This document shows, in pieces, positions 1 to 57,500 of a DNA stretch of 64,000 nt (the stretch's first letter is position 1; every line of letters begins with the position of its first letter). The stretch is from Geosiphon pyriformis uo1 (lineage: Eukaryota; Fungi; Glomeromycota), in the NCBI GenBank assembly GCA_016748015.1, contig JAAOMT010000213.1:216485-280484 (forward strand), in the 5' to 3' direction. The notes beneath the pieces are model-generated. The model made no database searches and had not been told where the DNA came from. It saw nothing but the letters and a program-made list of their open reading frames with translations. A program made the translations under genes and the position numbers.

Positions 1-1279
1 GTTATAATATGTAAATTTAATATAATTTAACTATATATACAAATTTTTTATTAATTTAAAAAAGTATTGATTTTATATTAAATTAACTTTTTATCTTTTT
101 TTTTTATAATGTTTTAAATAATTGTTATTAATATTTTAAATATGTTTTAATACTTATTATTAAGATTTTAAGTTAAATTACTTTAATAATTTTTTATATG
201 TTTATTATCAATATTTTAAGTTTTTTATTATTAAAATATATATTATTAACATTTTATATTATGTTTTTTTTAATCAAAAATAATTATTTATTATTTAATT
301 TTGTTTTTATTATAATATTAAATAATAATAAAAGTTATTATATTATTTAAAAATATTATTTTTATAATAGCTTTAAATTAATTATTTATTTTAGTTTTAT
401 TTTATTTTAAAAAATTTTTAAAATTTTTTTATTCTTGTTTTTTAAATTTAGACTTTTAAATATTACATATTTTTAATAATTAATTGAAAAAATTCTGGCT
501 TAATTTAATAATATAAGTTTGGTTTTTTGTTAGTTGTATTTTTTGTGTTTTTAATAAAAACTTTTTTTATAAAAACTTATATTAAACTAATTTTTGTTTA
601 AAAACAAATAATAATAACAATATTTTTTTTATTTTAAATATTTATTTTATAACTTTTTTACTTTTTTTTAAATATTAAAATAGTTTATATACTTATATAT
701 ATAATTAAAAAAGTTTCTAAATTTGTAATTTTGCTAAATAATATTAATTAATATAAAAGAAAAAATATTAAACAAAAAAAATATTTTTATTAATTAAATA
801 TTTTAATTTAATTATACAAAAAATCAAAAATCAACTTTAAATATTTAAAATTAAATTATTATGTATTAATTAAATTCAGTAATAATTACAAATTTTTATA
901 TTATTAAAAATTACAAAAATATTTGGATTTTTATTTACAATATATTAAATATTATTATTAAAATTTTATAAAACATATTTATTAATTATTTAAATACAAT
1001 TTCAAACTTTGTTTATTATAATATTATTTTGTAAACATAAAAACCAAAATAAATATAATTAAAAATATTAATTAATAATAAAATAATAACTTATTAACAA
1101 TTATAAATTATTTTTTGCTTTTAAATTTTTTTAAAAAAATTAAACAATTATAATTTTAAAAAAAACTTCTTTCTCTCTTACCCCCAAAAACCCCAATGAA
1201 TTATTTTCTGAAAAAGAAGTTTTTGTTTTTTTCTTGTTAATATTATATCAACATTTCTTTAACTAATAACCCTTTTGTT

Positions 1280-3141
1280 ATGGATTCAGAGGCTGCTTCT
1301 AGTGGCAGTATGTCAAAAAAAAAGACGCCTAAAGGTGCTTTTCATGGTCCTGCTGGTGGTTCTTTTACTCAGTCATTCTTGGGAATATTAAACATTCTGG
1401 CGATGAACGGAACATCTCTCTGAAGTTTGGTTCTGGTTATAGTGTTTTTTCTGATGTGGAAAGCTTATCTGATAATGAAAATGAAAATGACATTGATATG
1501 TCTGGTGGTGGTAATGGCTCTCTTCTGGGTTTAGCTGTTAATACTCCAAGAACAAATAGATTAAGTACTGGCATGGATTTTGGCTCCTCTCTCAGTTCCC
1601 CCAACTTCGCCATGGATGAAAAGGTGAAACCTTTTCCTCTTCCAATAAAGAAAGCCTCTTCTGATAGCAAATGAGTCGATCCTATTATCATCAAAACTCA
1701 AGTGGAGATGTCTGTCAAAAAATCTTTTGCCTTGGATATCAATCTTTTAGCTATTGAAGACAAATCAGTGACAGCAAAAACTTAATTGATCAGAAAATTT
1801 TTTTCAAAGATCAATGGTTTTGGGAGGGCCACTACCTCCTCAAAATTTAAAGAAATCATCCAATCGACATTTACTTCTGAGAAGAGCATGAGAAAAGCTG
1901 CGTCATTGGCCGAAAAAGAAAGAATCATCGTAAACAATAATGTGAAGAAACAAGGACTTCGTTCAAATTGGACTGTAGTGATCAAAGAAATTTCTATGAA
2001 TACGCCTAAAGACATAATTATCGCTGCAGTTTCTGAGTTTGGGATAATTAAGTCGATCAAAATCCAATTGGTTGGTATGTGGCAAAAGGCTGTGGTAGAA
2101 TTTGCTAACTCAGACCAGGCTGTACAATTGGCTTCAAGATGGTCATTCCTAATTGGGAAAGATTCAGTTCATGTGGCTATGGCCATGGGAGATCATGATA
2201 CATGGGCTTCTAGAGATCAGTTTAGAGCACTGTTGTTTACTTTGCCTATAAGCACTATTGTGCATGATCTTAGTATGCTTTTGGATGGGGCTGGAAGAAA
2301 AACTTGTGTCATCAATAGATCATTGGAGACTGGCAATCAGTTCTGCTGTGCTGTGGTGTGCTTTGAATCTGATGAAATGTTAGAGTCTGTTTTTTACACT
2401 AAGCCAATTTTTGGTGGTATTCGATTGTTATGGGCTAGGTTGGAGCTGGTTTGGTGTAGTAGATGTGGGCATTTTGGACATTCAGCTCTCGAGTGCGATG
2501 CCTCTGATGTATCACCTTTTGTGCCTTCTAATTTGATGAAAAAATCTTCTTTTGGTGCATCCTGTTTTCAGCTAGCCAAATTGTACACCAGAAAAAATGT
2601 TCCTATTTCTTGCCCAACTGCCTTTGGTGGTAAATCATGGGCTCAAGTGGTGTCCTTTGCCTCCCTTCCTGGTGGCTCTCCTTCTGGCTCTGGGTTGCTT
2701 TCTAATGGTGCGTCTCCATCATTTGGTTCTTCTTATCATTAGGTCAATGGCTTAGGTGATTGTCTGGTAGTGTTGGAATGATTTATGGAAATCCTTTCTG
2801 ATCAGATGTCTGTTATTCTCAGAAAATTGAGTTCTTTTGAGTTGGTGCCATTGGTGTCTCTTTTTTGTGCTCCTCCTTTGGCTGTTTCTGTGCATTCAGC
2901 TCCAGTTGTGGACTCGGGTATGGCTCTGGATGATGTGTTAGCCTCGTCTGCTCCCTCTCTTTCTGGTGGTAGTGATTCTGCTGCGGTTCTTAGTTCAAGT
3001 GGTTTAAAGGTTCTTACCTCCAAATTGGGTGGTTTGGAATCCAAGATGTCTGGTCTGAAAGCTTTGTTCAGTTCGATCCTGGTGAGATTGGATCTTTTGT
3101 GTTCTGGTTCGGGTTTGTCTCTACCTCATTTGTCCCAATGA
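1280..3141 (+). pseudogene. LINE copy 1 ORF1 (RRM-like domain, CCHC zinc knuckle, C-terminal coiled coil), with premature stops
   Basis: RRM-like WTVVIKEISMNTPK...KAVVEF; knuckle CSRCGHFGHSALEC; heptads LTSKLGGLESKMSGLKAL; ends CAA-TGA at 3141. Start position is approximate. Confidence 0.88.
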
Positions 3142-6100
3142 CCAGTTTAGTTTGGAGGATTGCCACGTGTAATGTGAGAAGTATGAACAATTTGGCAAAA
3201 CAGGAAGACATTATACATTGGCACAAGAATTCTAGCAATTTGGTTTCCATTCTTATGGAGACAAAGTTAAAGGATAAGGTCTACCCTTGGCTGGCTAGCA
3301 AATTTGATGGTGTTCGTGTTTTCTCTTTTAGATTGAACTCTGACTACGTTGGTGCTGGTGTTGTGGTCATTATGAACAATTCTTTAGCTAAGCATGTCAG
3401 TAAAGTTTCTGAGATTCCAGATCACCTCCTTTGCATTAGATTACTCTTTAAAAACAAACTTTTGGTTTCTGTCCTAGGGCTTTATGCTGGTGTCTCCTTG
3501 ACTGCTTGGTTCTCTCAAGCTGGTGAGATCAATTTTTTGATTGCAATGGCTGTGAATGAATCTTCTTTTGTTATTCTTGGTGGCGATTTCAATGAGAATG
3601 GCTCTCATAAGTGTGCTAGCTTCAAAAGATGTTTTGATTTGGGTTTGGTCAATTCTCTGAATGGGAGCCCTTTTGTGAAAGCACCAACCTGGTGCAACTT
3701 TTGTGGTGTTACTAAAATGATTGATTATGTTTTCATCTCTTCTGATTTGGTTGGTGCTTTGGTGGATTATGGTGTGGTTGGTGTTAAGAAATTTTTTGAT
3801 ACTGATCACAAGGCCGTTTCTGTTTCTGTGGGCTTGGATGGTTGCCTTGATGTCTAGTTGAATTCATTATGCAGGCAGACAAATAAAGATCATTGGAAGT
3901 ATGATGTCAAAAGTGCTGATAAGATCAAGTGGTCCGATTTCAGAGTCACTATGGCCAACAATGTTTCTACGTTCTTGGATGAGTTTGTCACAGCTAAATG
4001 GTTTTCAGACTTGGATGTGATGTGAGATGCTGTTTGCAAGATTATTGTTCTCTTAGCAGAAAGAACATTCAGAAAAAAGTGGTTTAAAGGTTTTGATAGT
4101 GTTTTTAATAAGGTGTCCTCTAGGTTTCATAAACTTGAGCTACTCATGTCTAAGCTGGTAAGATCTTTTCGTTTGGTTTCTGGTGGGGATTTTGTTTTGT
4201 TGCTGGATATTTGGGACAGGCTTGATTCAGTGAATGCTTCATTAGTAAAGTCTCTTTTTTTTTCTGGCTCTGGTTTTGATGCAATTCATTCTGAGCTGTT
4301 TAAGACAAGGAAGTCTTACCACTCTTCTAAGTTGATGGAATCTAAGTGCACTGAAGAATTTCATATAAGGCAAGCTGTCGAAAGGAGGATGGAGAGTTTT
4401 GAGGTGGACAAGAGTCATACCATTAGGAGCATTTTGGAGTGCCCCTTTCACAAGGTGGTGCTGGATTATTTGGTTGTGGAGGAGAAGCTGGTCTTGAAGC
4501 CTGGGTTGGTTAAGTCTAAGGTGAATGTGATTATGGAAGATTGAATTTGGAAGGATGTGGTTGTTTCTGATATTTTTGACGTTTGGGTGCACCAATTTTA
4601 GCCTTTGGAGTACATTTTTGATGGCATCTTCTCCAATGTGATGTGTTCAATCAGTTTTGAGGAAATGTTTGGTGTTGTTTCAAATTTGCCCGATGGAAAA
4701 GTGGCTGGTCTTTCTGGTATCACTAATGAACTTTGGAAGCATTGTAACAAGTCGGTTTTGCATATGCTTTTAGAGCTCTTGAATTTTTGCTTGATTTGTG
4801 AGTCAGTACCTGGACCTTGGAGGGAAGCTTAGGTTTCGATGATTTCTAAACCCTATGAGTGGGAGGGCATTCTTATGAATACTCAACCTATTGCTTTAAT
4901 TGAAACTGCTCACAAGATTCTTTCAGACTGGATCTCTTTGGCTTGTAGCTCTTTTGATGTACTCTGTGGGGACAATTTCTCTGTCTTGAAGGGGACAACT
5001 ACTCAGTCACCTATTTTTGCCATCAGTTCTGTGGTCGAGAATGCCCTAGAGAAAAACCGAGAGCTGTGGCTGGTGTTGCAGGACATGTGGAAAGCTTATA
5101 ACTCTGTTGGTTGGAAGCATCTTAGGAAGAGTCTGGTCAGGATTAAAATGTGTGATAGGTTCATTAGGTTCTTTGGTTCCATCCATAATGGTCATGTTAA
5201 CAGAGTAATGACAGATTTTGGGTTGACTAATGGTTATCATGTTCACAATGGTTTGGATCAGGAGGAGGTTTTTTTGCCACTTCTTTGGCGCATATTTTAT
5301 AATTCACTCTTGTGTGAGGTCAGGAGGCAGGAAAGTATGTGTGTTTACTGTTTGATTTCTCATTTTGTTTCCAAAACTGGCCATGTGGAATCTCAGAGTG
5401 GGCTAATTTTGTTTTTGACTGTTGGTGGTTTTGTTGATAATACGATTTGAATTGGTAGCAGCCAGGCTGCTACTCAATATATTCTTGACATTGCTAGTGA
5501 ATTTTTCAGATTTAATGACATTTCAATTAACAATGACAAAACTGTGGTCATTTCCATCAACTGTCAGGTTGTTGATCCAGTTTTGACTGTCAGTGGCTCA
5601 CCTATTTCCATTGCCAAGAAGGGAGAACTTCATTGTTATTTGGGCATATTTTTGTCTTCTGAAGGTCTTTCAAGGCCCAGCTTGGCTAAGGCGCATTCAA
5701 ACATTCGGTTTTTTGTCAATCTTATTTTGAAAAAAGTGATTTTGGATAAGCAGTTTGCTTATTTGGTGTTTTCAGTTATTTTTCCTATCATTGGCTATAG
5801 AACTCAATTCAGTTTCATTCCAGTCAGTGTGTATAATAAATAGGATGTTCTGATCTGCAAGGGTTTGAAATCTAAATCTGGGCTTCTGCTTGACTTTCCC
5901 AATGATGCACTTCATCATCCTTCTCTGTACAATTTAAAAACTTTTGAACAGGTTCAGGCTAAGAGCAAACTGGCGTCTGTTGTTGCTTTTGCAAATTCTG
6001 CTGGTGTTTTGGGCCGTCTGTTTTCTTATAGGTCTCATGACCTCCAGGTTTTTAGCTGGCGTTCTTGTTACCCTTTGTTGTTTCCAGTTCATGTTAGTAT

Positions 6101-7814
6101 TAGCCCTTCGAATAACTTTTTGGCAGGTGTGATTCATATTTTTTCTAGGTGTAATTTATTTTTGGGTGGCTTTCTGGCTGATGCTTTTTGTTTTCGAGGT
6201 GGTATCCCAATGTCTTGTGTTCTTGGTGAGAAAATTTTTTTTAAATGTGTGTCTTCTTTCAAGCGTTATGGTATTGCCTTCATGGAACAGCTCCACGACT
6301 GGAATGGTATTGTTTTTGCCTGAAAGACCTTCAAGCATTGGAAAAGACTGGACCCTTGTGGCCCAGTTCCCTTCTGGTTTGACCTGTCTGTTTGTTTTCT
6401 TGATGACATTACTTCTTCTTCCAATTGCTCTTTGCATGCAGAATTTCTTGACCCTTCTGATGTTCGTCAATCTTTTGGTTTTGGTGTTGTTTGTAATGAT
6501 CTATCGAATGCTGGTGCTGACTGCCTTTCTGTGTATACGGATAGGTTTCTGTGTAATTTGAGTACTGTTGACATGAAGGCTGGTGCTGCTGTTTTTTTTG
6601 AGGACATTAATTCAGGTTTGGGTGTGAGTATGTTTGGTTTGGTCTCTTCTACTTTAACAGAATTGCAGGCTATTACTCTAGCTTTGGAGTGTATTCCTTC
6701 TTTTTGCTCAGTTGACCTGTTCTCAGACAGCCAAACAGCTTTGGATGCATATAGGTCGAAGTCTTTGTTGGTTGGTCCAAACTTCAGAAATTGTTGCTGG
6801 ATTGAGCATTATCACATCGCTAATATCATTTGTCGGAAAAAATTAGATGTGAATTGAATTAAGGTTAAAGGTCATTCGGGCATTCTGGGCAATAAGTGTG
6901 CTGATGTGCTTACTAAAGATGCTACTTTTTCTGCCTGGTGTCTGCTCCATTTGGTCAGTGAGAGATTTCTAAAGACTGGTAGTGCTGCAGTTTCTGGTAA
7001 TTCTAAGCATTTTGTTTGTGATGTTTTCTGGTCAATCCATCATGTACACTGGGAGATTGGTTCTGGTTCACGGGTTGTCCCAGTCAGTTTGCATGCTGAT
7101 ATTGATTGGTTGCAGTCCTCTTTGATGTGGCACCCAAACTCTCATTTGGCTTCAGGTTTTATTAGTAAATGTACTGCTGGCTTACAGACTTACTTTATGA
7201 AGACTCTTTATCATCAGCTCCCTGTTGCTATGTGGAAGCATTTGTATGATAGGTGCTATGCCAGTGTGGTGTGTTTGTTCTGTGGTGACATTGAGGTCTC
7301 AAACCATGTTTTTTCTTGTCCATTTGATGCTGCTGGTTGTGCTCAGTTGTTTATTGCTCATGCATTGGCTTGGGAGGCTTGTTCTGGTTTGGTTTGGTCT
7401 TTTTCATATGTCTCCCAGTTGCTGTCTACTTGCATTGCAGATGCTGTGGTCAGTACAGCTCTGTGTAAGGGCTTTGTTTTCGGTGATTGGTATCAGAAGT
7501 TATTGTCAGTTTTTATGGATTCCATAGTTGTGGCTTCTAATATTGTGAATTTTGTATGCAGGTTTTGTGTGTCTTTTTGGAATGATATTTGGCTGGTTTG
7601 CGCTAAACACCAGGCTTTCATAAAGAAGAATAGGCTGATCCCATGTGATGGTTCTATTTTTGTTCTGGTTTCCAGTTTTCCTATGGTGTTCTCTCCTGAC
7701 ATGATTAGGTTATTGAGTATTGCTGATGCTGTTGGTATTGGTTTTGGGTTTCACAAACCTTGTTTGTTTTTTTCAGGTATTTGTGACATAGTCTCCATTC
7801 ATATAGGTGCTTAG
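3138..7814 (+). pseudogene. LINE copy 1 ORF2 (AP endonuclease, reverse transcriptase, RNase H, zinc finger), with multiple stops
   Basis: APE motifs TCNVR, ETK, GDFNE, IDY, TDH. RT motifs QDMWKAYNSV, GLDQEEVFLPLLW, FVDN. RNase H motifs VYTDR, TELQAI, SDSQ, KVKGHSG. Zinc finger CLFCGDIEVSNHVFSC. Confidence 0.95.
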
Positions 7815-8064: not shown

Positions 8065-11000
8065 TTACTATATCTTTCTCTTATTAATTCTCTAACTATA
8101 ATAAGAATAAAAAATTATTAAAGAAATAATTCTTCTTTTCTCTTTTTTTTCTTTGTTTTTTTTAGTTATTTTTTCTAATTTATTTTTTTTGTTGTAATAG
8201 AACTGGTAGGCTTTTTTGCTAGTGGTTTTGGTTTAGATTTGACTGGTTTGAAAACATGCTTAAGCACCAAAAAAAAGCAAATAGAAAGTATATACTTCTA
8301 CAGTATATTTTACAAAAAGCCAAAAAATTCTGATATGAATATTAGTATAATTAACTTGTTTATTGGTTTTTTAAGTTTTAAAAATATTGGTGTTTATAGT
8401 AGAAAGCTTGTGGTGTTTTAAGATAGTAAAGTTAACAGCAAAACCAGTAGTATTAGTAGTTTATTGGATGTGAAAAATATGAAAAACATGATTGCTAAAG
8501 AGACTAGTTATACAGATTTAGATACTTTAGTGATTAATAAGAATATGGATAATATTATGCTACAGAAAACTTATACTCAAACATATATGTTGAGTTAACC
8601 ACTAAAAGCTTCTTTATTTATGGATTTAAATAATAACAAAAACATTTTAATGCTTTTGCCATCTAAGTTTAACAATTTTAAACAATTTCTATTGGTCAAG
8701 TTATATGTTTTAAAAAAATAGAGTTTTAATTTGGCAAAATTTTTTACATTAAATATTAAGCTTTCTGCTATGTCTGGAAAATCTTTTAGTAATAAGTTAA
8801 TGGCAATAAAAAAAAATTTTATTGTGTTAATGGTTTTGGAGAACATTAATTTTTTTAAAATTTCCTGGTATAATTAGATTATTTTTTATATCTGAGTTTA
8901 GTTTGAAAAAAGCTAAGAAGTTGGCAATTAGTAAAAAAATTTTAGTTAATAATAATATCAAAATAGCAAACAAACATACAGATTAAGAAGTAATAATTAA
9001 GAAAATTTCTGTAAATCTTTCAAAATTGGCTGTAAAATTAATTTTTTCTAAATTTGGCAAGATTGTGTCTATTAAAATACAGTTAATTGGTCTTTGGCAA
9101 AAGACTTTGATAAAATTTGAGTTAGTTAAAGTCACTGATTTGGTTGCAGCCAAGTAATCTGTTTTTATAAAAAAGAATTTTGTTTGTATTACAAAGACTG
9201 TTAATAATAAACAAACATAGATACTTAAAAATTAATATTAGACTTTGCCATATACTTTGCCAATTATTATTGTTTATAATCTCTCTAAATTATTGGTTTT
9301 ATATGGTAAAAAAACATGTTTTATTGGTTGCAATCTAAGTTTATATGTATATGACAAATTTGCTATGATTTGTTTTGTTAATAAGACATCTAAAAAAGCT
9401 GTTATTAGTTTTATTCTAATATTTAAAAGTGTAAAGTTGCATTGGACTGGTCTTTTTTTGGCTTGTTGTGCTCAGTACAAACAATTTGGGCATGTTTCTA
9501 ATGCTTGTTTAGAGAGTAAAAATTTGAGTGATCACATTAAAAGAGTGGTTAATTTTTAGGATTGGATCTATTTAGCAAATATATATAAGAAAAAACAGAT
9601 ATTAATTGCTTATCTAGTTTTCTTTGATGAGAAAACTTGGACTTAAATTGCCAGTAGTTCTTTTTCTTGTGTAGTTTTCTGGTTTCTTTTGGTAATAATT
9701 TGTTTTCAGATATTAAACTTTTTTTATTAGTGTTTGTGGAAGTAAATAATAAATTTGCTGCTCTTAAATACAGTCTTATTAGTTTTATAAAGCAAGTTAA
9801 AAAGCTGACTAAGAGGTTGAATGCACTTGGGCCAATAGTTTCTTAGCTTAGTCTTAAATATTAATTATTAATAACTCTTTTATTACAAAATTAAGAGACA
9901 AATATAGTAATAAGTAAGAGTTCAAGTGCAACTACTAGTAATGAAATTGTTATAGAAATAATATCTTTGGATTTATTAGTAATTTCTAAATTGAAAAACA
10001 GTTTGCAAAGTCTTTTAGATATGGTTTTGGATCTTATAACTAAGATAGACAATATTGGTTTTGGTTTAAGGATCTCTTTTTCTTAATGACTGATCTTGTA
10101 TAAAAGATTGCTACATGTAATATTAAAAGTATCAATGTTTTTGTTAAGTAGACTGATGTTGTTTAATGATATGTTAATTTGGGTAATATAATTTCTATCA
10201 TCACAGAAACTAAATTAAAATCTAATATTAGGCTTTAGATAATAAATAAGTTTAAAGTAGTATGAATTTTTACATTTGGTTTGGATAAAAGTTTTTTCAG
10301 TGCTTGAATAACTATAATTATAAATAATGCTTTGGCTTGACATGTTTTAAAAGTTGATAAGATTTTAAACAAAATTATTTTAATTTGTTTTTTGTTTAAA
10401 AATAAACTTTTAGTAACAATTTTGGGGTTGTATACTGGTGCTTTTTCTAAGATTAGATTTGAATAAGCATTGAGAATTAATTTTTTTGTTGCTAAAACAA
10501 TTAATTCCAGTACTTTTGTGGTCTTGAGTAAGAATTTCAATAAGAATAAATCAAAAAAAGTGCAAGTTTTAAGTTTTGTTTAGATTTGGGTTTGGTTAAT
10601 ACATTTAATGAACATTCATTAACCAAAGCTTTTACTTAAAACAATTTTAAGGGTGTTGAAAAAATATTAGATTTTATATTTGTGAATAAAAATCTGGCAT
10701 TTGCAGTTACAAATTATAAGATTGATATTGTGTTAGAATTTTTTAATATAAATCACAAAACAGTCTTAGTTTTAGTTGGTTTGAGTGGTTTTTTGGATGT
10801 TTATCTTAATAGCATTTATAAGCAAACTAATAAAAATTAATAGAAATTTAAGATAAAAAATACAAATAAAGCCAAATGAGTACAATTTAAAAAGTGCTCT
10901 TTTAACAAGTTGCTAATAGTATCAAATGTGTTCAAAAAGACAAAGTATTGTAATAATTTAGATATAATATAGAAGATATTGAAAGAAATTTTATCATAAT

Positions 11001-26799: not shown

Positions 26800-26840
26800 G
26801 TCAATTGAAGATACTTCTGTTTTGGGAATGGTGCATTTAT

Positions 26841-32498: not shown

Positions 32499-32503
32499 TT
32501 TTA

Positions 32504-35399: not shown

Positions 35400-35780
35400 A
35401 AAACTGGAAAATTTTGAAGTTATCTTATATTAAAAAACATATTAGCTTATAAAAACACTAGAAAACAATTGTAAAACAACAGTTAATAATATTAGTAACT
35501 CTCAAAAACAACAAAAAAAAGATATAACAATAATTTATTTAACCAACCAATTGAATTTAAGATTAAAGACAAAATATTATTATATTGTATTAAAGTAAAA
35601 AAAACAGTAAAGTAAAAAATTTGATCCAAAATAAGATGAATTATTTTATATACATAAAGTTTTTAACAATGAAGCTTATAAACTATAATTGAAAAACAAA
35701 ATTCTGAAAAAAGTCACACATAAAAATTGTTTAAAATTTTATTATATAATACAAAAATTATTATTAGTTATATCTTAACT
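35400..35780 (+). mobile_element. Ancient Ty3 integrase C-terminal relic, probably part of a larger decayed element (~33.2-37.1 kb)
   Basis: Reads EFKIKDKILL...KFDPK*DELFYIHKV.NNEAYKL, which reverts to FKIGDKVLL...KWDGPF...GxYKL when G->A/C->T changes are undone. Confidence 0.65.
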
Positions 35781-44569: not shown

Positions 44570-45420
44570 GCTAAATTAATATGCTAATATTTTTGCTAAT
44601 AAAAACAAATTTGAACATATTAATATTATAAAACACAAAATTAATATTAGAAATACCAAATCAATTAAACAACAAGTTTATTGAATTATTTTAGATAAAA
44701 ACAACTTAATTAAGCAAAAAATATAGTAAATATTAAACAATGACTTAATAAAAAAATTATTAAGCTTATAGTCTTTATCTGTTATTTTAATTACAAAAAA
44801 AATAAAAAAATCTGTTTTTATATTAATTATTAAAAACTCAATAATATTATTCAAGAAAATAATTATTTGACTTTTTTTATCCAGAAAATTTTAAACAACT
44901 TGAAAAATAAGAAATATTTTTTATTATTAAATTTAGCCAGTAAATATTAACAAGTTAAAATTAGATTCTATTAACAAAAAAAAACTGTTTTTATTACACA
45001 AAATAAAAATTTTGAGTTTAATGTAATGTCTTTTAAACTCTGTAATATTCCAGTTACTTTTCAATGTTTAATAGATGTTGTTTATAAAAAAATCTTGTAA
45101 AAGTCAGTTGTTATTTATTTAGATAACACCAATGTGTTTTTAAAGATTTTTAATGATTATTTACTCCACTTTTAACAAATTTTTAACTGTTTTCGAAATA
45201 CAGAACTCAACTCTAATAAATGTTTCTTTGAAAAAATTGAGCTTAAATTTTTGGAACATATTATTGAAAAAATGAAATAAAATCTGATTCAAATAAAGTT
45301 TAAAAGAGTAAGAATTTTTTTGTTTTAATTAATCTCTAAGAATTATAAATTTTTTTAGAACTTACTAAATATTATCACTATTTTATTAAAAATTTTTTGA
45401 ATATTACCAAATCTTTTTGT
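44570..45420 (+). mobile_element. Highly decayed Ty3 reverse transcriptase relic
   Basis: Residual motifs KHKIN..IKQQVY, NLASKY*QV (DLASGYWQV), KTVFITQ, FNVMSFKLCNIPVTFQ (VMPFGLCNAPATFQ), IYLDN, KFLEHII. Confidence 0.85.
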
Positions 45421-46938
45421 TTTTGATAATATTTGAAAAATAATTTTTATTTATTAAAAGTTTTTTGAATAAATAATATTACTTAAGTAAAAAACTAATC
45501 AAAAATTTATTGAAAAATATAATTAATATGTAATAATACAAAATAATACAGAATAATATAAAATAACATAAAATAATATACAATAATGCAAAATAATACA
45601 AAATAACTAACAATAATTAATTATAACATAAAAAAGCAAAACAATAACTAATTAACAAGCAATAGTTAATAATAATAAACAATTAAAAGCAATTTTGTAA
45701 AATTAAAAAATATATATAAAAATAAATAATTATAATAAACAGAAAAAAACAGAATTGAATTTACTTTAGTACTTAATAATATCTTTAGATCTATTATTTT
45801 TATTATATTTTTTTATATTTTTTATTATTTAAATAAAAATATTATTAATTTATTTAAACTTATAATTTTGAAAACTTGTTATTGAAATTTGATTTTTCAT
45901 TAAAATTAGTTATTTCTATTCTAAACCAAATATAATTAGCATAAAAACTTTTGATTCTTAATGACTTAAATTAATTATTTTTGATTATAACAATTAATAA
46001 AAAACTAATTTTTTTATTTTTTTAAAGAGTAGTAATATTGAAAATTAATTGTCTTGAAATTAATCTTTATAATAATTTGGTAAAAAAAAAAGCTTTCTCT
46101 AAAGTATTAAATATTAACTTTATCTTATTAACTTATTAAAAAAACAAAAAAATATTATTAAATTTTAACAATTGTAATTAATTAATATAGAATAAAACTA
46201 TTATAATAATATAATTACTAATACAATATTTATGTATTTTATAACTAAAAAACTCAATAAGTAAAACTAAAATTACAACAAAATTTTAAGACTAATAGAT
46301 TAATTTATTAAAAAACCAAATATAGCTATAAGATTTTTAAGCTTTTATTTTTACTTTAAAAAAATAGCTTCTATTTTTAAAACTTAAGCACCAAATATTA
46401 TAATACTATTAACCAAATTTACTTGTAACAATAGTGTTTACTCTAATACTTGATATTATATTTAAGTTTAAATTAGTTTTAGTTACTTTTTTATTTTATT
46501 TGTTGTCTGATTTTGTTAAATTTAAATTAGTTTTAAAAAACAATATTAAGTTGTTTTGTGTAGATTTTGCTTTTAAAGCTTTTTTTAGTTACTGCTATTA
46601 AAATTTTTATTAGTAATTCTCTTTTTTTAATTACACTTAAGATTGCAAAATTTTTTGTAATAACTTTTGGTTTTTTTTTTCTATTTTTGTTGTATTTTAT
46701 AATGTTTTTTTTAACATATTTTTTAATAATATTAAAAATGTTTTTGGTATTTTTAGTGTTGTTACTTTAATTAAATTAAAGTTTATTAATTTGTAACAAT
46801 ATGCTGTTGTATTAAAAAAACTTCTTTCTTTTATACATCCCAAATTCTCTAAAGAGCACAATTTTGAAAGAAGTTTTTTGTTTTTTCTATCTGTTTTATT
46901 TCACTATTTCTTTTACACATAACCTATTTGTTGTGGAT

Positions 46939-48818
46939 ATGGAGGCTGCCTCTAGTGGCAGTTTGTCAGGTTCGAAGGCCCCCTTGGGTGCTTTCTTTGG
47001 TCCTGCTGGTGGCTTCTTTTCACAAAAAAAAAGGGTTTCTCTTCACAATGTCAAGCATTCTGGTGTTAAAGGTGGTGTTTTTTTGGCCAAACTTCATTTT
47101 GATAGGGGCATATACTCTAATATAGAAAGTGATTCTAATAGTAGTATTGTTGATGACATCCTGGTTGGTAGTAGTGATAAATCTTTTCTCAGTTCAGCTG
47201 CTACTACTCTTAAGGCAAAAAGAGTTAAAAATGGTTTGGTCTGTGGTTCCCCTCTTGGTTCTCTGGATTATGACATGGATGATGATGATGGTGGTTTCCT
47301 CTCTCCTCTTCTTGGTATTTCTTTGGAAAGAAAGTGGTTAGATCCCAAAATAGTCAAAACTCAGGTGGAAGTTGCTGTGAAAAAATCTTTTGCTTTGGAC
47401 ATTAATCTCTCAGCTGTGAAAGGCAAATCGACTACAGCCAAAACTCAGATCATTAGAAAATTGTTTTCGAAAATCAATGGTTTTGGGGGGCCACTACCCC
47501 CTCAAAATTTGAAGGGATCATCAGATCAATGTTTATTTCATTAGAGAGCATGAAAAAAGCCGTCTTATTGGCCAGGGAAAATAATATCATGGTAAACAGT
47601 GATCTTAAGAGACAAGAAATTTGTTCAGATCGGGCCGTAGTAATCAAAGAAATTCCCATGAACATGCCAAAAAAAATGATAGTTGCTGCAGTATCCGAGT
47701 TTGGTCAAGTAGTGTCAATCCGATTGCAATTCATTGGGCTGTGGCAGAAGGCTGTAGTAGAGTTTGCCAAATCAAGTCAGACAGATCAGTTGGCAGCTAA
47801 GTGGTCTTTCTTGATCGGAAAAAATTCAGTGCATGTGACCAAGACTGTGGAAGATCATAAGACATGGGCATCTAGAGATCGGTATAAGGCGCTTTTGTTT
47901 ACTTTGCCAGTAAGAACAATGGCTTATGATCTTGGTGATTTTTTGGCAAGAGCTGGTGGGAAAACTTGTGTCATAAATTGATCCTTAGACACTGACAATA
48001 GAGTTCATTGTGCTGTGGTTTGTTTTGAGAATGACGAGGTATTGGAGTCTGCATTTTATGCGGAGTCTGTTTTTGGTGGGGTGGAACTTTCTTGGGCTAA
48101 ATTGGACCTAGTTTAGTGTGAACAGTGTGGAAAACTTGGTTATTCTGTTCTAAAGTGTGGTGCTGAGATCTCAACTCCTCTTAAACTTTCCAAGTCATTT
48201 AAAAGAGTTGTCTTTGATAAAAACCACCTCCAGTTGGCCAAGCTGTATGTGAAAAAGAGTGTGCCTATTTCTTGACTGGCTGCATTTGGCAGCAAATCAT
48301 GGGCCCAGGTTGTTTCTCTGGTATCTTCGTCTAATGGTCTTCACTTTGGTTCTGGTTCTGGTTTTGGCTTTTCTTCTGGTGCCTCAGGTGTGATTAGTCA
48401 CTTGTCTTCTGTGGTTCCTGTTTATTCAATTTTGGAAACTCGTCTCGCTTTTTTGGAGTGTTTTTTGGAACTTTTCACAGATAGGGTGTCTGGTATTGTA
48501 AACAAACTTGACAATTTAAGCCTGGTGCCTATAACTTTCATTTCCTCTTCTTAGCCCTTGGTTATTCCTGTTATGGCAAATATGAAGATTGGTTCGGATA
48601 TGGTTCTGGATGATTTTAAGCCTGTGGTTCTTCCTCCCTTTTCAGTTTTCTCTGGTGTCTCAAATTTGGGTTTGAGTGGTTCAAAAATTTTGACTTCAAA
48701 AGTGGGCTTTTTGGAGTTGAAGTTGATGGCGCTCAAAGCTTTGGTTTGTTTGGTATTGGAGAAGTTAAATCAGATGTGTGCTGGTTCGGGTTTTGCAGTC
48801 TCTTCTTTATCTCAATGA
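46939..48818 (+). pseudogene. LINE copy 4 ORF1
   Basis: MEAASSGS...KKSFALDINL...AVVIKEIPMNMPK...KAVVEF; one frameshift near 47490 and several stops. Confidence 0.88.
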
Positions 48819-51800
48819 ACAGTTTGGTTTGGAGAATTGTGACATGTAATGTGAAGGGCATGAATATTCTTGCCAAACAGGACAATGTAGTTAGATGGCA
48901 CATGGACTCTGGAAATGACATTTTTATCATTATGGAGACAAAGTTAAAATCTGGTGTTAAGCCGTGAATCATGAATAAGTTCTCTGGTGTTTGCATTTTC
49001 ACATTAAGGCTTGATACAGGTTCTTCTGATGCTGGCGTGGCTGTTATTATGAACTCTTCTGTGGCTCGGCATGTTTCAAAGATCAATGAAATTCCTGGTC
49101 AGTTGATTTCAATTAGGCTCTTGTTTAAGGACAAACTTTTGGTTACAATCTTGGGTATCTATGCAGATGTATCTGCTGGTGTGCGATTTGGTCAAGCTCT
49201 TACTGTCAACTTCTTGATTACTAGTGCTATCAACTCAAGTTCTTTTGTCATCTTGGGTGGGGACTTCAATGAATCAGATACTAAGAAAAGTGCTAGTCTC
49301 AGAAAATGCACGGATCTGAGTCTTGTTAATTCTTTCAAAGAACATTTTTTGGCTAGTTCACCTACGTGGAGCAACTCCAGAGGTGTGGAAAAAGTTATTG
49401 ATTATATTTTTGTTAGTGAAAACTTAGTTTCTGCTCTGATGAAGTGGAACATTGGCGTGATTACAGAGTTTTTTGACATGGATCATAAGATGATTTCAGT
49501 TTCAATTGGATTAAAGGGTCTTCTTAATGCTCAGCTAAATAGTATTTACAAACAGGCCAATAGAAACAGATGGAAGTTTGACTTTAAGGATGCTGACCCT
49601 TCCAAATGGTTACAGTTTAAGAATAATATGTCTGCTGCTCTGTCCTTGGTCATAGGCAGTTTTCTGAGTGCTAAGGTTTTCAGTAATTTGGATAAGATGT
49701 GAGACGTGTTGTGTGGAGTTATGGTAAGAGCCGTTGATGCTACGTTTTCTAGGCACTGGTTTAGCAAATTTGACTGTTCAAGAAACAGACATTCATTGAG
49801 ATTTTTTGGACTTGAATTGTTGGTGGCTAAGGTCATCAAGAGTTTGAATACAGGTGATAAGCGTAAGTGTGATTGTCTAATCAAGAGGTGGTTTCTGGTC
49901 AATTATAAAGAGGCTTTCAAGTTTGATTTTTTGGTTCAAAATAGGGCTGATTTGATGGAGGTGTTCAAGTATCTGTCTCAGGTTAGGAAGTGTTATAGGA
50001 AGTCTAAGTATTATGAATCCAGAATGACAAGGAATACAGTGATTCAAAGTGCCATTAATAAATGCATAGAGAATTTCAGTTCTAACAAAGGTGGCATAAT
50101 TAGGAATATTTTGGAGCGGTCTTTTTGTAAGGTTATTTTGGACCACTTGGTTATAGGCGATGAACTGGTTTTGGATCTAATTGAGGTAAAAAGCAGAGTC
50201 AACAGTATCATGGTTAACTGGATGAGGGAGTGTATTTCATCTTTAGTGATGTCTTCCAAATGGGCCCACCAATATGCGCCTTTGGATTATGTGAAAGATG
50301 ATGCCTTCTCTAATATTATGAATGACATCTATTTCAGTAAATTGGTGAATGTGATTTTGGGTCTACTTAATGGCAAAGTGGCTGGCCTGTCTGGTATCTC
50401 TAACGAGCTATAGAAACATTGTGGTGATGATATGCTTGAGTGTTTGTTGGGTTTCTTAAATTCTTGCCTAAATATCAGTGAGATTCCGGCTCTTTGGAAA
50501 AGAGCTTGGGTTTCTATGATTCCCAAACCATATGAATGGAATGGCATTCTTACAAATACAAGGCCCATTGCGTTAATCAAAACAGCCAGAAAGATATTTT
50601 CTAAATTATTGTCTGACCGTATTTCTTTGGTCTGTTTCAGATTTGATGTTTTCCAGAGTGACAATTTCTCAGTCCTAAAGGGTACTTCCACTCAATCTCC
50701 AGTTTTTGCTGTTGGTTTGATTGTGGAGGATGCTCTGAAGAAAAATAGAGAGGTTTGGTTGGTATTGCAGGATATGCATAAGGCCTATGATTCTGTTGGT
50801 TGGCAGCAGTTGGAAGCCAGTTTGAAGTGGATCAAAATGTGTGACAGATTTGTGTTGTTTTTCGGAAACTTACATGTAGGCAGGATTAATAGAGTGATAA
50901 CTGATTTTGGCCTCTTGGATGGATATTGTGTGCTGGATAGTTTGGATCAAAAAGAAGTCTTCTCTCCTCTCTTGTGGAGGATTTTTTATGACCCTTTGTT
51001 ATGCGAGGTTAAGGATCATAAACATTTATATGGTTACAGAATCAATACCAACTTTGTAACAAAATCTGGCTATATTGAATCTAGTGGTAGTTGGTCTTCA
51101 TTTTTTGTGGCAGGTGCATTTGTGGATGATACTATCTGAATTGGTAATGGTCAGGCATTGACACAACATATTTTGGATATTGCAGGCAAATTTTTTGAGG
51201 TCAATGATATTGCAATTAACAGTGAAAAAACTGTGGCAATTCCTATCAACAAAAGAGTTTCAGATGCATCTCTGCATATTAATGGACTATCTATCTCTAT
51301 TGCTAAACAGAGTGAGGCTCATAGATATCTGGGCATTTTTTTGTCGACTAACAGGTTGTCTAAGCCCAGTTTAGCCAAAGCTCAATCGGATGTTAGGTTC
51401 TTTTCCAATATGGTTCTCAGGAAAGCTTTGACAGATAAACAATTTGTGTACTTGGTGTCTTCAGTTCTGCAATCCATTGTCAGCTATTGCACATAATTCA
51501 GCTTTGTTTCTAAGAGTGTTTGCTTGAAATGGGATGTTATGTTGAGAAAGAGTCTCAAATTTAAAGCGAATTTGCCTCAAGATTTTTTCAGTGAGGCTTT
51601 ACATTATCCCTCTCTTTATGGCATAAGGACTTTTGAACAGATTTAGGCTGAAGAGAAGGTGGCTTCATTGGTTTGGTTCTCAAATGCGTCTGGTATTCTG
51701 GGACATTTATTTAAACACCATTTTTTGGATCTACAGATATTAGAGTGGGCTCTGTTAAACCTTTTGCGACATCCTATTAAGTTGAGAGTTAGTCCCTCTA

Positions 51801-53500
51801 ACAATTTTCTTGCTGTTATGATTAGAATTTTTTTGGACAATGATATATATCTGGCCAACAATTTGCTTTGTGCTTTTCATGGTGCTGGTCACTTCTCTGT
51901 GTTGACAATCTTGGGTAGCTCCTTTTATTTTGGTGTGGTCCCCTCTTTAAAGTGTTTTGGTGTTGTCTTTGGTGACAGATTATTGAGCAAAGATGGATCA
52001 GTTCTCAGTTGGAGGACTTTTTACCACTGAAAGAGACTAAGTTCCAGGGGTCCTGTACCCTTGTGGTACTCCAAAGTTTCTGCATACATGGATGATCACT
52101 GTCTCATTCCTGGTGGTCTGTCCACAGTCTCTAGTGGCTCAAACTTTTTTGATTTGGAAAGATATTTGGTTGTTCGGGAATGTTTACATGAATCCTGGTC
52201 TGATGTCTTTACAGTGTATACTGATGGTTCTCTGTCTTATTTGAGCACTGCCGAGATTGTGGGTGGGGCTGCAGCTTATTTTCCTGATGCTGGTATGAGT
52301 ATTGGCGTTGAGGTCAATGGGTTGCTTTCTTCTACTATGGCTGAACTTCATGCTGTTGTCCTGGCACTGGAATGTGTTCCTTTTTCATGCTCAGTTGTTA
52401 TTAACACCAATAGTCAGGCTACTATTGATGCATGTGCTTCAGAATTGGGTTTAATTGCTCCTGATTTCAGGAACAAATGTTGGGTGGAGAGGTGTTATAT
52501 TCGCAAGTTGATCGAGGATAAAGACTTTTCTGTTGGGTGGATGAAAGTGAAGAGCCATTTGGGTGATGCTCACAATGACAAGGCTAATGCTTTGGCTGGA
52601 TGTGCTGCTCACTCCAATTTGTCTCTTCCTATGTGTGTTCAAGAAAAGTATGTCATGGCTCGTGGTCAGGTTGTCTTGGACAATGCTCGACATTTTGTTC
52701 AGGATATTTATAGGTCTATCTGTCGTGCTCAATGGAAGGCTGGTCCTGGCTCTGTGGTGATTGATGAAGAGTTGATTGTGAGAGTTGATTGGAAGTGTAT
52801 GGTTTCAGTTTGGCACTTGAACTCTCATATGCTGTTGGGTTTTATAAGCCAAGCTTTAACTGTTCTCCATACCTATTTAATGAAAGTGGTCCATAGGAAG
52901 TTACTAGTTGCCGTTCATAAAAGGTTATATGATAAATGTTATTCTGGGGTTTTCTGTTTGATGTGTGGTAATGTTAAATTGTCAGATTATGTGTTTACTT
53001 GTCAAAGTGAGACAGCTGTACGTGCTGATATTTTGTTGGGCAGGACCACTTTTTGGAAGTCATTGCTGGTGGGCTGCTCTTTGGCATCCTCTCTTATGTT
53101 GCATACTCTGTTTGCTGGTTGTCATGATTCAGAGGTGTATATGCAATTATGTAAAGGCTTTGTACTAAGAGAATGGGTCAATGAAGCTACTGCATATTTC
53201 AAGGATCATAATTGGGCTGTTTTGGTGGTGGCTAATTTTGTTTGACACCTGGCAGAAAAACACCAGTGTGGTTTGTGGTTATCCAGAGCTAAGTTTAAAG
53301 TAAACATGGAACATTGTGGTTTGGTTTGTGCTTCGGAAATTCCCATTGGTCTTTCAGTTAATTCTATTAAACATTTGTCTGGTAAAATTGTTTGTCTTCT
53401 TGGAATTGATGAGGAGTTTGCCATCAGTTTTGGTTTGTGCAAGACTAATCTTTTTTTTTCTGGTATTTGTGATAGTGTCAAAGTTTACGTAGGTGTGTAG
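48815..53500 (+). pseudogene. LINE copy 4 ORF2 (APE-RT-RNase H-zinc finger)
   Basis: GGDFNE, NTRPIALI, QDMHKAYDSV, FSPLLW, AFVDDT, VYTDGS, MAELHA, WMKVKSH, CLMCG. Confidence 0.95.
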
Positions 53501-54144
53501 TGTTGCCTAGATTGGCCTGAGTGGCTAGTCACATATAGCAAATGCGTAAGCCACATTTAATTAGATTCACTTAGCTTGTATCTGTATATTAGATAGTGGT
53601 TGAACTACACTCGTTAAATGAAATATAAAAAAAAAATGCTGTTGTTAATTTAAGAACTTTTTTTCTGTTATTGTTGTTTTTAATAATTGGTTTATGTTAA
53701 TAAAAAAAGACAATATTCAAAATATTTTCTTTTTTAACCAAAAAAAATAAAAATTTTATTGTAAAAATTAGAAAAACATTAAAAATTATTAACTTTCTAT
53801 ATTTTTAAATTAGAAAAACATATTAAGTAATTGTAAGAATAGTCTTAAAAAAAATCTTAATACAGCAAATAAATTTCAGTTTAGTCTTTGAAAAAAAGTA
53901 TATAAATATATATAATAATTAGAAATTAAAAAATAATTTATATTATAATATCAAAGAAAAAGCTTTTAGTATAAAATCAGTATTATTATATAAATAAAAT
54001 TAAAAAATTTATAAAAAACTGATTGCAATTAAAACAGAAAAATTAATATTTAATATACCAAGAAAATTATTTTATAATAGTAGTTTCTAATTTAATATTT
54101 AATTATATTTTAAATTAAATTGGTCTTAATTAATTTTTTGTTTA

Positions 54145-54520
54145 AATTATTGTCTGGTTTTGTTAAATTTAAGTTAGTTTTAAAAAACAGTATTAAGTTG
54201 TTTTGTATGAACTTTGTTTTCAAGTTTTCTTTAGTTATTGTTATTAAAATTATTATTATTAATTATTTTTTTTGATTATATTTAAAATTGCAAAATTTTT
54301 TGTGATGGCTTTTGGTTTCTTTTTTTTTTACTTTTGTTGTATTTTATAATATTTTTTTTAACATATTTTTTAATAATATTAAAAATGTTTTAAGTATTTT
54401 TGGTGTTATTATTTTAATTAAATTAATATTTGTTAATATGTAATAATATATTGTTATTTATTTCAAAAAAAATTTCTTGTTGTTACTGTTTTTAATAATT
54501 GATTTATGCTAATTAAAAAA
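54145..54520 (+). repeat. Direct repeat of the sequence interrupted by LINE copy 4 (46495-46810 plus 53646-53705)
   Basis: Long shared strings such as ttttgttgtattttataat...ttttaacatattttttaataatattaaaaatgtttt; the copy continues across the insertion point. Confidence 0.85.
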
Positions 54521-57500
54521 ATAAGATTAAAATTTTTTTTTTATTATCTTTAAATTTTTGAATATCTTAAATTTTGGTATTCTAAAAACTAGTATTTTAC
54601 ATAAGAATTGTATTTTATAAACAATTTTTAAATATTGTTACTACTATAAGTATTAGAATTTAAATTATTTAACTATAAATTATAAAGTACTTTTATTATT
54701 GTTTCTTAAATTTGTTTTTAAGTTCACTAATAGTTTTATTGCTTTTTTTATTTTTATTAATACAAATTTTATATTAAAGTTGTTGTTTTTATAATTTTTT
54801 TTTGTTACTTTTTTTGTTGTTTTTATTATTGTTTTTAAAATTAAATTTAGATTAAATTCTTTAAAATTTCAGATCTTAAATTTGGCTTTTTTAATTAAGT
54901 TTGTTGTTAAATTAATTAGTTTATTAATTATATTAGTTATTATTCTTTTGAATACTTTTTTTGTTGTATATATAGAATTTAAAAATATGGTTATAACTGT
55001 TTAAAATAAAATATCTACTTTTGATAAAATTTTAAACAAGGTTAATATTAAAAAAATTAAAATTAAAACTAATATAATATTAAAATTAACTTAATAAATA
55101 ATATTAATAATATGTTAAATAAAAATATTTATTTTTAGTTAATAGCTCTTTAAAAACATTAATTTTTTAAAATTAAGTAAGTTCAGATAAAATTGTTAAA
55201 TAATTAAGTAATTTAATTATAAATAATAATTTTTTAATTGTAATTATGTATAAATATTTTTTCAAAATAGATTTTCTTTTTAAATTCAATATAATTTGGC
55301 TTAAATTAAATTTATATCTAGTTATATATAAAAAATATGTAAATCATACTTAATTTAAGATATTTAGATTTTTGTATTATTAAGTTGTAATTGAATTTAT
55401 ATGCTAAATAAATAAATAAAAAATATATATATTTTGTAACTAATTATAATTTTATAAATAAATTTAACCAATTTAATTATTAAAGTTTTTATATTATTAA
55501 ATATTAACAAAATTTTATTAACTTAATTTTTAAATATATTATTTTTATTTATTATAATATTTATTAATATTCAAAAACAAAAACTAAAACACAAAAAAAA
55601 TACTTGAATTTACACCAATTAAAAATTATTAAAATAGTTTAAATTTAGCTTGTTATTAAATATTATTTTAATAAAATACCAAAATTACCAAAAATTATTT
55701 TATTATTAGTTTAATTGCTTTTTGGTAATTTACTTTGTTTTTTGTGCTTTTAGTAGAAATTGATTATTATTCCTTAAATAAAATTTTAAGCTGGTTTTTG
55801 CTTAAAAACAAATAATAATAACTTTATAATTTTTTTTGCTTTATAAATATTTTTTATAACTCTTATTTTTTTTTTTTTATGTATATATTGAAATAAACCT
55901 ATATAATTAATATTAAACTTATATTATTAGTAATAATATTAATATTTAATAATAATACTTAAATTTATAATATTATAAAATAATAATATTTTTTTGGTTT
56001 TATATATTAAATTAAAAAAAATGTTTATAATTTATAAAAATGTTGTTTTTAAAAAAGTTATTAATAAAATAAGTAAAAAATTGGTAAACTTAAAACAAAA
56101 TATAAAATTAAAAATAATAAAATATAAGTGTTTTAAATAATAAAATTAATAAAAAAATATTTGCTTTTTAAAAGTATTAAATACTTAATATTAGATTATA
56201 TACAAATAAAATTGCCAAATAAATAAATAATATAATTAAAAATAGTTGTATATTAGATATTTATATAATAAAATGTTTTTTCAAAATAATTTTTTTATTA
56301 AATTTAATATAGTCTTAGCTTAAACTGAATTTATGTTTAATTTATATGTAAGTTATATTTATTTTGAAACTTATTTTATATTGTAATAGATAATAATTAA
56401 ACTTAGCATATTAAAAAAATTGTTACAGTATTTAATATAATATAGTATTAATATAAATTTAAATAATTGGCTACATATAATTTAAATCTAATATGTATTA
56501 TTTTTGTTATATATTATTAGATTATAATTAATTAACACAATTAAAATAAGTTGATTTTTTTAATAAATAAAACCTAATAAAAACAAATTTAATGCAAAAA
56601 TAAAAAATTTTAGTAAATTTGTAATAAATCTATATTTTTTTAAATATAATAAAATAGATAAGTATTATAAGCTTTTAATAGATGTAAATTTTAAATTCTA
56701 ATGTAATTACATGTTATGTTTGATTAAATAATCGACTAAAATTAAGCCCATTTATATACTATTCATGTTGAATTCGTACCAAATATTAAGCCCAAAACAT
56801 CATAATTATACTAATTTCACAAAATTCAAGCTTTGCACGTGAATATCTGCTGTGAATATATTCTTCCTTTTAACGATCAAGAATATTGTAAGCCAATAAT
56901 TATCTATATTTAAGCCGCACAAGACTAATATTTTAACGAGAATCTATGAGATTTAAATGGAAAGAAACAACCCACATAATTCTCAAATAAATTAATCCCC
57001 TCATCTTATTTTTGCCTCATACTCTGTTGTCAGCATCTAGTTGAGATAGGTTCATTAAATATATCCGCAACATTTTTTAACTTATAAAAAATTGAATGAT
57101 TTAGTCTCCCAATGATAATCAACGCATCAAGAAACCAACAAAAACAAGATTAAAGAAATTTATACGATTCTCTGTCAGGTGAAGGAGGCCAGAGGCTCTG
57201 AACGCGTGTTCCGATGATCCGCCGTGGGTAGGAGCAAGAAAAAATGTGTTCAAGTGCCTTTGAGAGTTTAGGTGCTTTTGTTTTTGTTTAGTTTTGTCGC
57301 ATAAGAAATAAAAACAAACAGAAAAACAAAAAGGAAAACTTTTTTCTTTGCTGCTTAGTCGGAATTTTTGACTTTGCTCATCTCTAAAAAGAGAGAAAAA
57401 ACTGTCAAGTAAGTAGCGTGCGCAGCCGCGCACCGTTTTTTACACCCAATGACCACTCGCCACCCCCATTTCTCTTGATTGAATAGTTTGATTCGAAACG

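Follow-up and report, generated by a model that had tools for sequence, protein, structure and literature searches.

The question raised by this locus is whether the repeats of a fungus outside Dikarya carry a directional C:G to T:A scar of the kind that repeat-induced point mutation (RIP) leaves, and which process might have produced it. We analysed a stretch of 64,000 nucleotides (hereafter the window) from contig JAAOMT010000213.1 of Geosiphon pyriformis, in which four long interspersed nuclear elements (LINE1 to LINE4) and a single complete insertion of Ty3/Gypsy type occur along with nested relics, A/T deserts and two blocks of genes. An earlier note, made from the letters of the window, had proposed repeat-restricted, broad-context, RIP-like hypermutation in an apparently non-Dikarya fungus and, behind it, an undescribed genome-defence pathway. 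The host is indeed outside Dikarya: the URB2 exon at 16083-16709 (minus strand) is 100% identical to a G. pyriformis protein, and the species has been placed in Archaeosporales, Glomeromycotina (PMC11952901). The analysis supports repeat-restricted, directional and broad-context C:G to T:A mutation that strikes CpG first, the restriction holding as far as composition shows; the proposed pathway fared less well.

Direction and context of mutation in the repeats

The two long terminal repeats (LTRs) of the Ty3/Gypsy insertion differed at 71 of 667 aligned columns, by 68 transitions and 3 transversions, and the first 270 columns held 40 differences, 2 of them transversions, the same count as had been given before. 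Both LTRs carried both types of change, again as claimed (12 C>T and 18 G>A on the left, 14 and 24 on the right), and the rates per C and per G were equal on both. The LTRs end in TG...CA and the insertion has ATAT on both sides, which rules out a mismatched pair from two insertions. When C or G was taken as the ancestral state, 11/14 CpG, 24/83 CpA, 17/38 CpC and 16/86 CpT sites had changed, and 57 of the 68 transitions lay outside CpG. CpG sites were nevertheless hit more often than non-CpG sites (11/14 versus 57/207, p 2e-4), with rates, corrected for double hits, of 1.04 and 0.17 per site per lineage, respectively, a difference of about sixfold. Relative to the per-site transversion rate, non-CpG C>T was about 77-fold (lower bound 27) and CpG transitions about 460-fold (lower bound about 160), ratios that are loose because only 3 transversions were available. 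The earlier note had held that non-CpG transitions at background would speak against its proposal; at 27-77 times transversions per site, they were far from it. The ratio of 68:3 rejected a transition/transversion ratio (ts/tv) of 2, 4 or 6 (p 2e-9, 1e-4 and 0.006, respectively) but not of 10 (p 0.10), and the non-CpG ratio of 57:3 rejected 4 (p 0.001) and 6 (p 0.02) but not 10. All three transversions were exchanges between A and T, which also lead in the old relics.

Four independent polarisations agree that the direction of change is C:G to T:A. In the old relic that this LTR family left at 23963-24486, 90 of the 134 C/G positions of the left LTR read T/A, while 11 of its 337 A/T positions read G/C. 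This alignment was scored symmetrically (score 250 versus a shuffle maximum of 52.5), and with such scoring the direction held for either real LTR, ruling out alignment bias as its source. Where the other three LINEs agree, LINE2 showed transitions at 327/735 C/G positions versus 109/1950 A/T positions (0.445 versus 0.056), its C loss being 0.44 at CA, 0.45 at CC and 0.49 at CT. The corresponding rates were 0.29 and 0.08 in LINE3, while LINE1 (0.15 versus 0.12) and LINE4 (0.17 versus 0.13) were nearly symmetric, as is to be expected if the copies used for reference are the decayed ones. The Ty3 integrase, compared with 120 outgroup proteins, departed from 116 conserved columns 26 times, by 15 single C>T or G>A changes, 2 reverse changes, 2 single transversions and 7 multi-step changes.

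The same direction was observed beyond the window. Among 28 LINE protein matches (27 named G. pyriformis and one the window's own protein), we analysed six copies of subfamily A from elsewhere in the assembly and four of subfamily B. In subfamily A, after masking 41 residues and excluding 35 shared replacements, the private replacements comprised 115 attributable to C>T or G>A only, 13 reverse and 14 transversion, against the 12%, 14% and 65% expected if mutation were uniform; a further 8 ambiguous, 1 reverse or transversion and 7 multi-step replacements were set aside. For 52 of the 115, the codons rule out a change at CpG. Subfamily B, for which the consensus is weak, gave 29/14/1. For Ty3 the pattern is family-wide: in the DNA run X1, which may be the source of the window, the 69,242 contigs that fell on Ty3 varied by transition at 1,595 places and by transversion at 151. 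The transversions of this run were strand-asymmetric (A>T 43, T>A 40, G>T 28, T>G 29, C>A 5, A>C 3), possibly reflecting subfamily differences.

With respect to context, loss followed the order CpG (about sixfold), TpC and then other contexts. When six comparisons were pooled, loss outside CpG was higher with a 5' T (odds 1.95, p 1.6e-6), unchanged with a 5' C (odds 1.0) and non-significantly lower with a 5' G (0.76, p 0.17), the pooled loss being 0.53 at TpC versus 0.33-0.39 at ApC, CpC and GpC. The preference for C after a pyrimidine that had been suggested therefore holds after T and not after C. Neither was the CpA preference by which RIP is recognised observed (CpA versus CpC and CpT, odds 0.89, p 0.40), and the composite RIP index ranged from -0.13 to -0.94 on the LINEs, Ty3 and LTRs, reaching +0.20 only in the deserts. 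Surviving CpG showed no shortage of 5' T (1.42 in LINE1, 1.08 in LINE4), which, together with the change of 57/207 non-CpG sites in the LTRs, rules out a TpCpG-type pattern.

Decay was progressive. The GC content was 39.8% in LINE1, 39.0% in LINE4, 30.1% in LINE3, 23.2% in LINE2 and 13.5% in the deserts, which bears out the series of decay read from the letters, and so does the drift of the catalytic motifs, from FVDDT (LINE4) through FVDNT (LINE1 and LINE3) to FVNNT (LINE2), with YLNN in the Ty3 reverse transcriptase (RT) and, at 44.6 kb, YLDN in the RT relic. Most stop codons could be traced by C>T or G>A, mainly from TGG, to a sense codon of another copy (8/9 in LINE1, 6/8 in LINE4, 23/32 in LINE3 and 35/57 in LINE2), and in each copy one of the stops is the terminal one common to all copies. 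The claim that all stops arose in this way was somewhat overstated; the others are probably located where a copy is out of frame or where the subfamilies diverge.

Clustering of the mutations by strand within a copy, which had been put forward as a check, was not clear: runs tests gave p 0.10, 0.59, 0.04, 0.24, 0.22 and 0.85, five of the six being null, and the C>T:G>A ratio was not heterogeneous among six young LINE copies (p 0.54). Loss was roughly even along LINE2, where CC pairs were lost jointly above chance (p 0.003), an excess that a TpC lean or regional differences in rate can explain. RIP of the Neurospora type is premeiotic and triggered by homology, depends on RID (and DIM-2), is burst-like and produces strand-coordinated mutation within a copy. 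The strand and evenness data fit steady accumulation better than a few bursts, although many rounds of RIP would blur the signal and look alike.

Borders, spared genes and layout of the window

The borders between repeats and genes are as sharp as had been described, with GC change points at 15,902 (15,892-15,913), 22,240 (22,239-22,245) and 56,733 (56,696-56,747), that is, within about 20, 6 and 50 bases, respectively. The 29 introns available (15 from URB2 and 14 from RNA joints) had 26.4% GC with observed/expected ratios (o/e) of 0.87 for CpG and 1.16 for TpC, and the gene flanks had 30% GC and a CpG o/e of 0.77, while the deserts had 13.5% GC and o/e values of 0.04 for CpG, 0.68 for TpC and 1.93 for GpC, the dinucleotide that survives best there. 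The difference in GC between introns and deserts was significant (p 9e-42), and the CpG o/e was 0.02-0.22 across the transposable elements (TEs) versus 0.87 in introns. Likewise, the GC-to-AT bias implied by intron composition was 2.8, versus 10 (LINE2, protein set) to 34 (relic) in the repeats. Two spliced RNA runs (X2 and X3) listed no variant in 56850-64000 and were identical to the window in genes. The other finding that the earlier note had named as speaking against its proposal, an equal spectrum in neutral single-copy DNA, was therefore addressed through composition.

Table 1. Features of the window, with positions counted from its first letter.
Feature	Positions	Strand	Remarks
A/T desert	3-391		More decayed inverted copy of the 36621-37020 relic; score 186.5 versus shuffle maximum 41; 30/42 C/G to T/A
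LINE1	1276-7814	+	Lightly decayed; GC 39.8%, CpG o/e 0.22
LINE2	8250-15902	+	Heavily decayed; GC 23.2%, CpG o/e 0.02
URB2/NPA2 gene	16080-22162	-	16 exons; spared control; coding sequence CpG o/e 0.76; introns about 26% GC
A/T desert	22240-25506		0 CpG; within it the old LTR relic and, at 24772-25012, the inverted LINE relic's 3' end
Old LTR relic	23963-24486		Same LTR family as the Ty3 insertion; outgroup for direction
Left LTR of Ty3/Gypsy insertion	25507-26173		ATAT directly before (25503-25506)
Ty3/Gypsy interior	26174-32503	-	gag, protease, RT (YLNN), RNase H, integrase; high-copy family
Right LTR of Ty3/Gypsy insertion	32504-33230		ATAT directly after (33231-33234)
Older LINE relic	33246-35413	-	Split by the Ty3 insertion; 501/854 LINE4 C/G to T/A; 88/1303 A/T to G/C
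Decayed repeat relic	36621-37020		Inverted partner of 3-391
LINE3	37400-43950	+	Intermediate decay; GC 30.1%, CpG o/e 0.05; 152/527 conserved C/G changed
Ty3 RT relic	44623-45407	+	Within desert; YLDN motif
LINE4	46800-53620	+	Lightly decayed, FVDD intact; GC 39.0%, CpG o/e 0.22
A/T desert	53620-56733		GC 11%, 0 CpG; short match to 537-669
Gene block	56733-64000		Single-copy, expressed; spared control; CpG o/e 0.81; introns 26.9% GC

Most deserts contain recognisable relics, namely the 3' end of LINE2, which passes into desert and reaches the border at 15,902, the inverted LINE cut by Ty3, the LTR, the Ty3 RT and the inverted-repeat pair. The Ty3 insertion is nested in the older inverted LINE relic (24772-25012 and 33246-35413), which is far more decayed than the element inside it and thereby gives the relative age of the nest. 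Its target duplication is of 4 bases, ATAT on both sides, and could be a fully decayed ACGT. Only 5 CpG remain over the 6.3 kb of the interior. The integrase begins at about 28085-28320 (minus strand) in a frame different from that of RT-RNase H, and a further open reading frame (ORF) remnant with a weak, sub-threshold Pfam match lies between integrase and LTR (26143-26856, minus strand); related loci such as L033 likewise have ORFs behind the integrase. A 12-base tandem unit occurs in each LTR (26026-26097 and 33035-33142), the array differing in length by 60 bases between the two.

LINE1 encodes an ORF1 with an RRM and, from 3138, an ORF2 with endonuclease, RT and RNase H. Many G. pyriformis 'hypothetical proteins' (P0002-P0029) are decayed LINE fragments annotated as genes, which may inflate the gene count of the species and its TE-in-exon statistics. 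The gene block at the right end had spliced reads in the two RNA runs and contains eIF3i by Pfam, as well as a small spliced gene (62313-62755, plus strand) that presumably encodes an Sm-like protein of the LSM6 type. The ends of the RNA joint at 59213-59282 are CT..GC, suggestive of a minus-strand GC-AG intron in a proline-rich multi-exon gene.

Proposed methylation-linked mutation and its rivals

Direction, breadth of context, hierarchy, equality of strands, progressive decay from an intact LINE to a desert of 10-15% GC and sharp gene borders are all observed. On the sequence evidence, the best reading is chronic, methylation-linked C>T mutation in repeat heterochromatin that depends on CG plus non-CG methyltransferases, to which we give a probability of about 0.6. 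Repeat heterochromatin would be methylated densely at CG and more lightly at non-CG cytosines, the marks being placed by a putative CG methyltransferase of the DNMT1/DNMT5 type and a putative non-CG methyltransferase of the DIM-2 or RID/Masc1 type. Methylated bases would be steadily deaminated, left unrepaired and fixed on both strands, so that mutations would accumulate a few sites at a time across many nuclear generations, without premeiotic bursts, and the retroelements would be irreversibly inactivated. This reading predicts that non-CG 5-methylcytosine (5mC) amounts to roughly a sixth of that at CG and leans towards TpC. The CpG ratio of about 460 leans towards enzyme-assisted deamination or a very low background of replication error.

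Arbuscular mycorrhizal fungi (AMF) are said to hold DNMT1, DNMT2, DNMT5, DIM-2 and RID (PMC8298701, citing Bewick 2019); in the table of a 2026 review, however, RID is given for no group but Ascomycota (PMC13297926), which makes its presence in AMF uncertain. High CG methylation has been reported on most TEs of R. irregularis (PMC8647823) and CG and CHH methylation on those of Phycomyces (PMC11258239), and Dim2 is reported to drive mitotic C>T mutation in Zymoseptoria repeats, at CpA (PMC8016269). Methyltransferase-dependent C>T mutation in methylated repeats, a known kind of process, would explain the data with a new context profile, and the claim of an undescribed genome-defence pathway is unsupported. 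Neither clear strand clustering nor any other sign of RIP-like bursts was found.

Several points weigh against chronic methylation-linked mutation. A high ts/tv alone is not diagnostic: among nine pairs of related Ty3 elements from metagenomes, two reach 54:2 and 26:1. The changes in these two were mostly synonymous, the first pair was balanced in direction (29 versus 25, compared with 18 versus 8 in the second) and the hosts of the first pair keep CpG; what is diagnostic is the direction, the nonsense load and the contrast with introns. Four integrase clusters, which contained 68 of the 120 integrase matches, gave 157/83/130 against the 115/13/14 of the LINE copies (p 4e-14), and this control is imperfect, as its proteins belong to other hosts and evolve under selection. 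The contexts of the LTR pair depend on a maximum-GC ancestor, and the polarised LINE rates include divergence before insertion, the four LINEs being subfamilies of 51-60% identity. Sparing of single-copy DNA is read from composition, and this might equally be kept up by selection or by biased gene conversion; the URB2 introns taken alone are CpG-poor (o/e 0.44). The runs test with p 0.04, one of six, shows weak strand clustering in LINE1, and LINE3 has a strand skew (p 0.035). The stretch 22240-23900 and most of 53620-56733 had no match to any element of the window. Finally, in Zymoseptoria more than 98% of C>T mutations reportedly fall at CpA and CG is spared (PMC8016269), while in Geosiphon CpG is fastest, CpA is unpreferred and TpC is favoured.

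Across 80 metagenome Ty3 loci, both LTR ends were found in only three (L016, L025 and L026; 139-155 bases), without substitutions. Four other loci (L046, L070, L010 and L018) had a CpG o/e of 0.06-0.21 versus 0.5-1.4 in most of the 80, and repeats may be methylated and eroded in the hosts of these four as well.

A true RIP-type defence, in which duplicates recognised by homology would be mutated in RID/Masc1-like C>T bursts during a sexual (cryptic) or parasexual stage with a new CpG > TpC > other preference, is unlikely. C:G to T:A transitions in the repeats stand far above transversions, on the scale demanded of RIP, the borders are sharp, all six subfamily A LINE copies carry such changes at 2-9% of their residues, and AMF have been reported to keep RID (PMC8298701). 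The absence of CpA preference and the negative composite index on all recognisable copies argue against it, as do the even loss along LINE2 and the absence of strand coordination in five of the six runs tests and across the six young copies. Moreover, the Ty3 family had risen to a depth hundreds to thousands of times that of single-copy DNA (summed depth, a rough proxy), and the joint loss of CC pairs in LINE2, which would suit RIP, can follow from a TpC preference after the first change.

Alternatively, ordinary CpG methylation decay might act on top of a genome-wide, strongly AT-biased spectrum, with selection or GC-biased gene conversion keeping GC in genes, introns and promoters while repeats relax to equilibrium. 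In its favour, the sparing is seen through composition, the RNA runs being identical to the window in genes; related Ty3 pairs elsewhere reach a ts/tv of up to 27; and in the LINE copies reverse transitions occurred at about four times transversions per opportunity, indicating a transition-rich baseline. Against such an equilibrium, the 29 short introns, from two gene blocks, have 26% GC with TpC over-represented whereas the deserts have 13.5% with TpC depleted, composition switches within tens of bases, and C>T is about 10 times the reverse in repeats, versus the 2.8 implied for introns; we regard it as improbable.

A TpC-preferring cytosine deaminase, APOBEC-like in action, working on repeat DNA or retroelement complementary DNA (cDNA) over CpG methylation decay, would account for the effect of a 5' T (odds 1.95) and for the fall of TpC o/e to 0.68 in the deserts. 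APOBEC3 signatures are far more restricted to TpC, and 0.53 at TpC versus 0.33-0.39 at ApC, CpC and GpC is a weak preference for such an enzyme; the two LTRs, moreover, diverged after insertion. Single-strand editing of cDNA is excluded by the equal C>T and G>A rates in both LTRs and LINE2, and we consider a TpC-preferring deaminase quite improbable. UV damage at dipyrimidines, poorly repaired in the heterochromatin of a surface-living photosymbiotic fungus, would suit the TpC bias and the CC>TT excess in LINE2 but is largely refuted and scarcely credible, as a 5' C had no effect and the non-dipyrimidine ACA/GCA sites mutate nearly as often as dipyrimidine sites (15/39 versus 69/144 in LINE2, 7/30 versus 24/81 in LINE3), with 8/29 ACA/GCA sites changed in the LTR pair.

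A broader reading is possible but doubtful: early-diverging symbiotic fungi might run an active, meiosis-independent repeat mutator with the hierarchy CpG > TpC > other C, invisible to RIP indices, as an ancestral broad-context form from which the CpA-RIP of ascomycetes and the TpCpG mutation of rusts arose and which Archaeosporales retained.

Relation to known mutation systems

A literature search of mostly open-access papers, with the Geosiphon genome papers outside its scope, turned up no account of hypermutation in Geosiphon, whether RIP-like or outside CpG, and in an AMF TE survey that includes this fungus 'RIP' and 'point mutation' are absent from the main text (PMC11952901). A kingdom-wide screen reported the RIP signature in Ascomycota only, its species table having Rhizophagus, Gigaspora and Diversispora but not Geosiphon (PMC12543289), and attempts to detect RIP signatures in Gigaspora and Mucoromycotina are reported to have been negative (PMC8647823, citing Venice 2020). 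A polarised, repeat-confined C>T excess of this size in Glomeromycotina would place repeat-directed mutagenesis below Dikarya, in a lineage in which sex has not been observed, and would suggest a function for the DIM-2 and RID reported from AMF. It also reveals that the composite RIP index in standard use, negative here, has a blind spot. The TE age landscapes of Geosiphonaceae have been read as lacking obvious recent bursts (PMC11952901); since the LTR pair diverged by 11.9% in Kimura distance and by 0.45% in transversions, such landscapes could overstate ages.

Passive 5mCpG decay, as reported for Agaricomycotina and for the TEs of R. irregularis (PMC8647823), shares with Geosiphon the near-total loss of CpG from repeats and the sparing of genes; CpG depletion was found here as it predicts, while non-CpG transitions, instead of staying at background, account for 57 of the 68 LTR transitions and run at 27-77 times the transversion rate. 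The TpCpG hypermutation described in Pucciniomycotina (Horns et al., PMC3318451) likewise has CpG as its main target and a 5' T effect, but there non-CpG C is at background, whereas in Geosiphon it is heavily mutated and surviving CpG keep their 5' T. In Zoophthora radicans and Entomophthorales (PMC11105155), TE-rich genomes also gave a RIP-like hint outside Dikarya; that signal is a CpA-based dinucleotide index from another phylum, while the Geosiphon signal is a polarised spectrum that such an index would miss.

The Dim2 mutation of Zymoseptoria tritici, as reported, is dominated by C>T, erodes TEs, acts in mitosis without need of meiosis, depends on a functional Dim2 and on 5mC, and is confined to methylated repeats (PMC8016269), features to which Geosiphon corresponds in C>T dominance and repeat confinement: about 95% C>T is expected in repeats under a process of this type, and 68 of the 71 LTR differences were transitions, with the direction given by the relic. 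The CpA specificity and sparing of CG of that process were not found. RIP in Neurospora crassa and other Pezizomycotina shares with Geosiphon directional C:G to T:A mutation on both strands of repeats (PMC12543289, PMC4352252, PMC13297926) and likewise gives Trp and Gln nonsense codons, A/T-rich relic blocks and sharp borders. Unlike RIP, Geosiphon shows no CpA preference, a negative index on recognisable copies and no clear strand-coordinated tracts, its TEs reached high copy number and the host lies outside Dikarya. The Geosiphon scar resembles RIP in outcome and fails the RIP context test.

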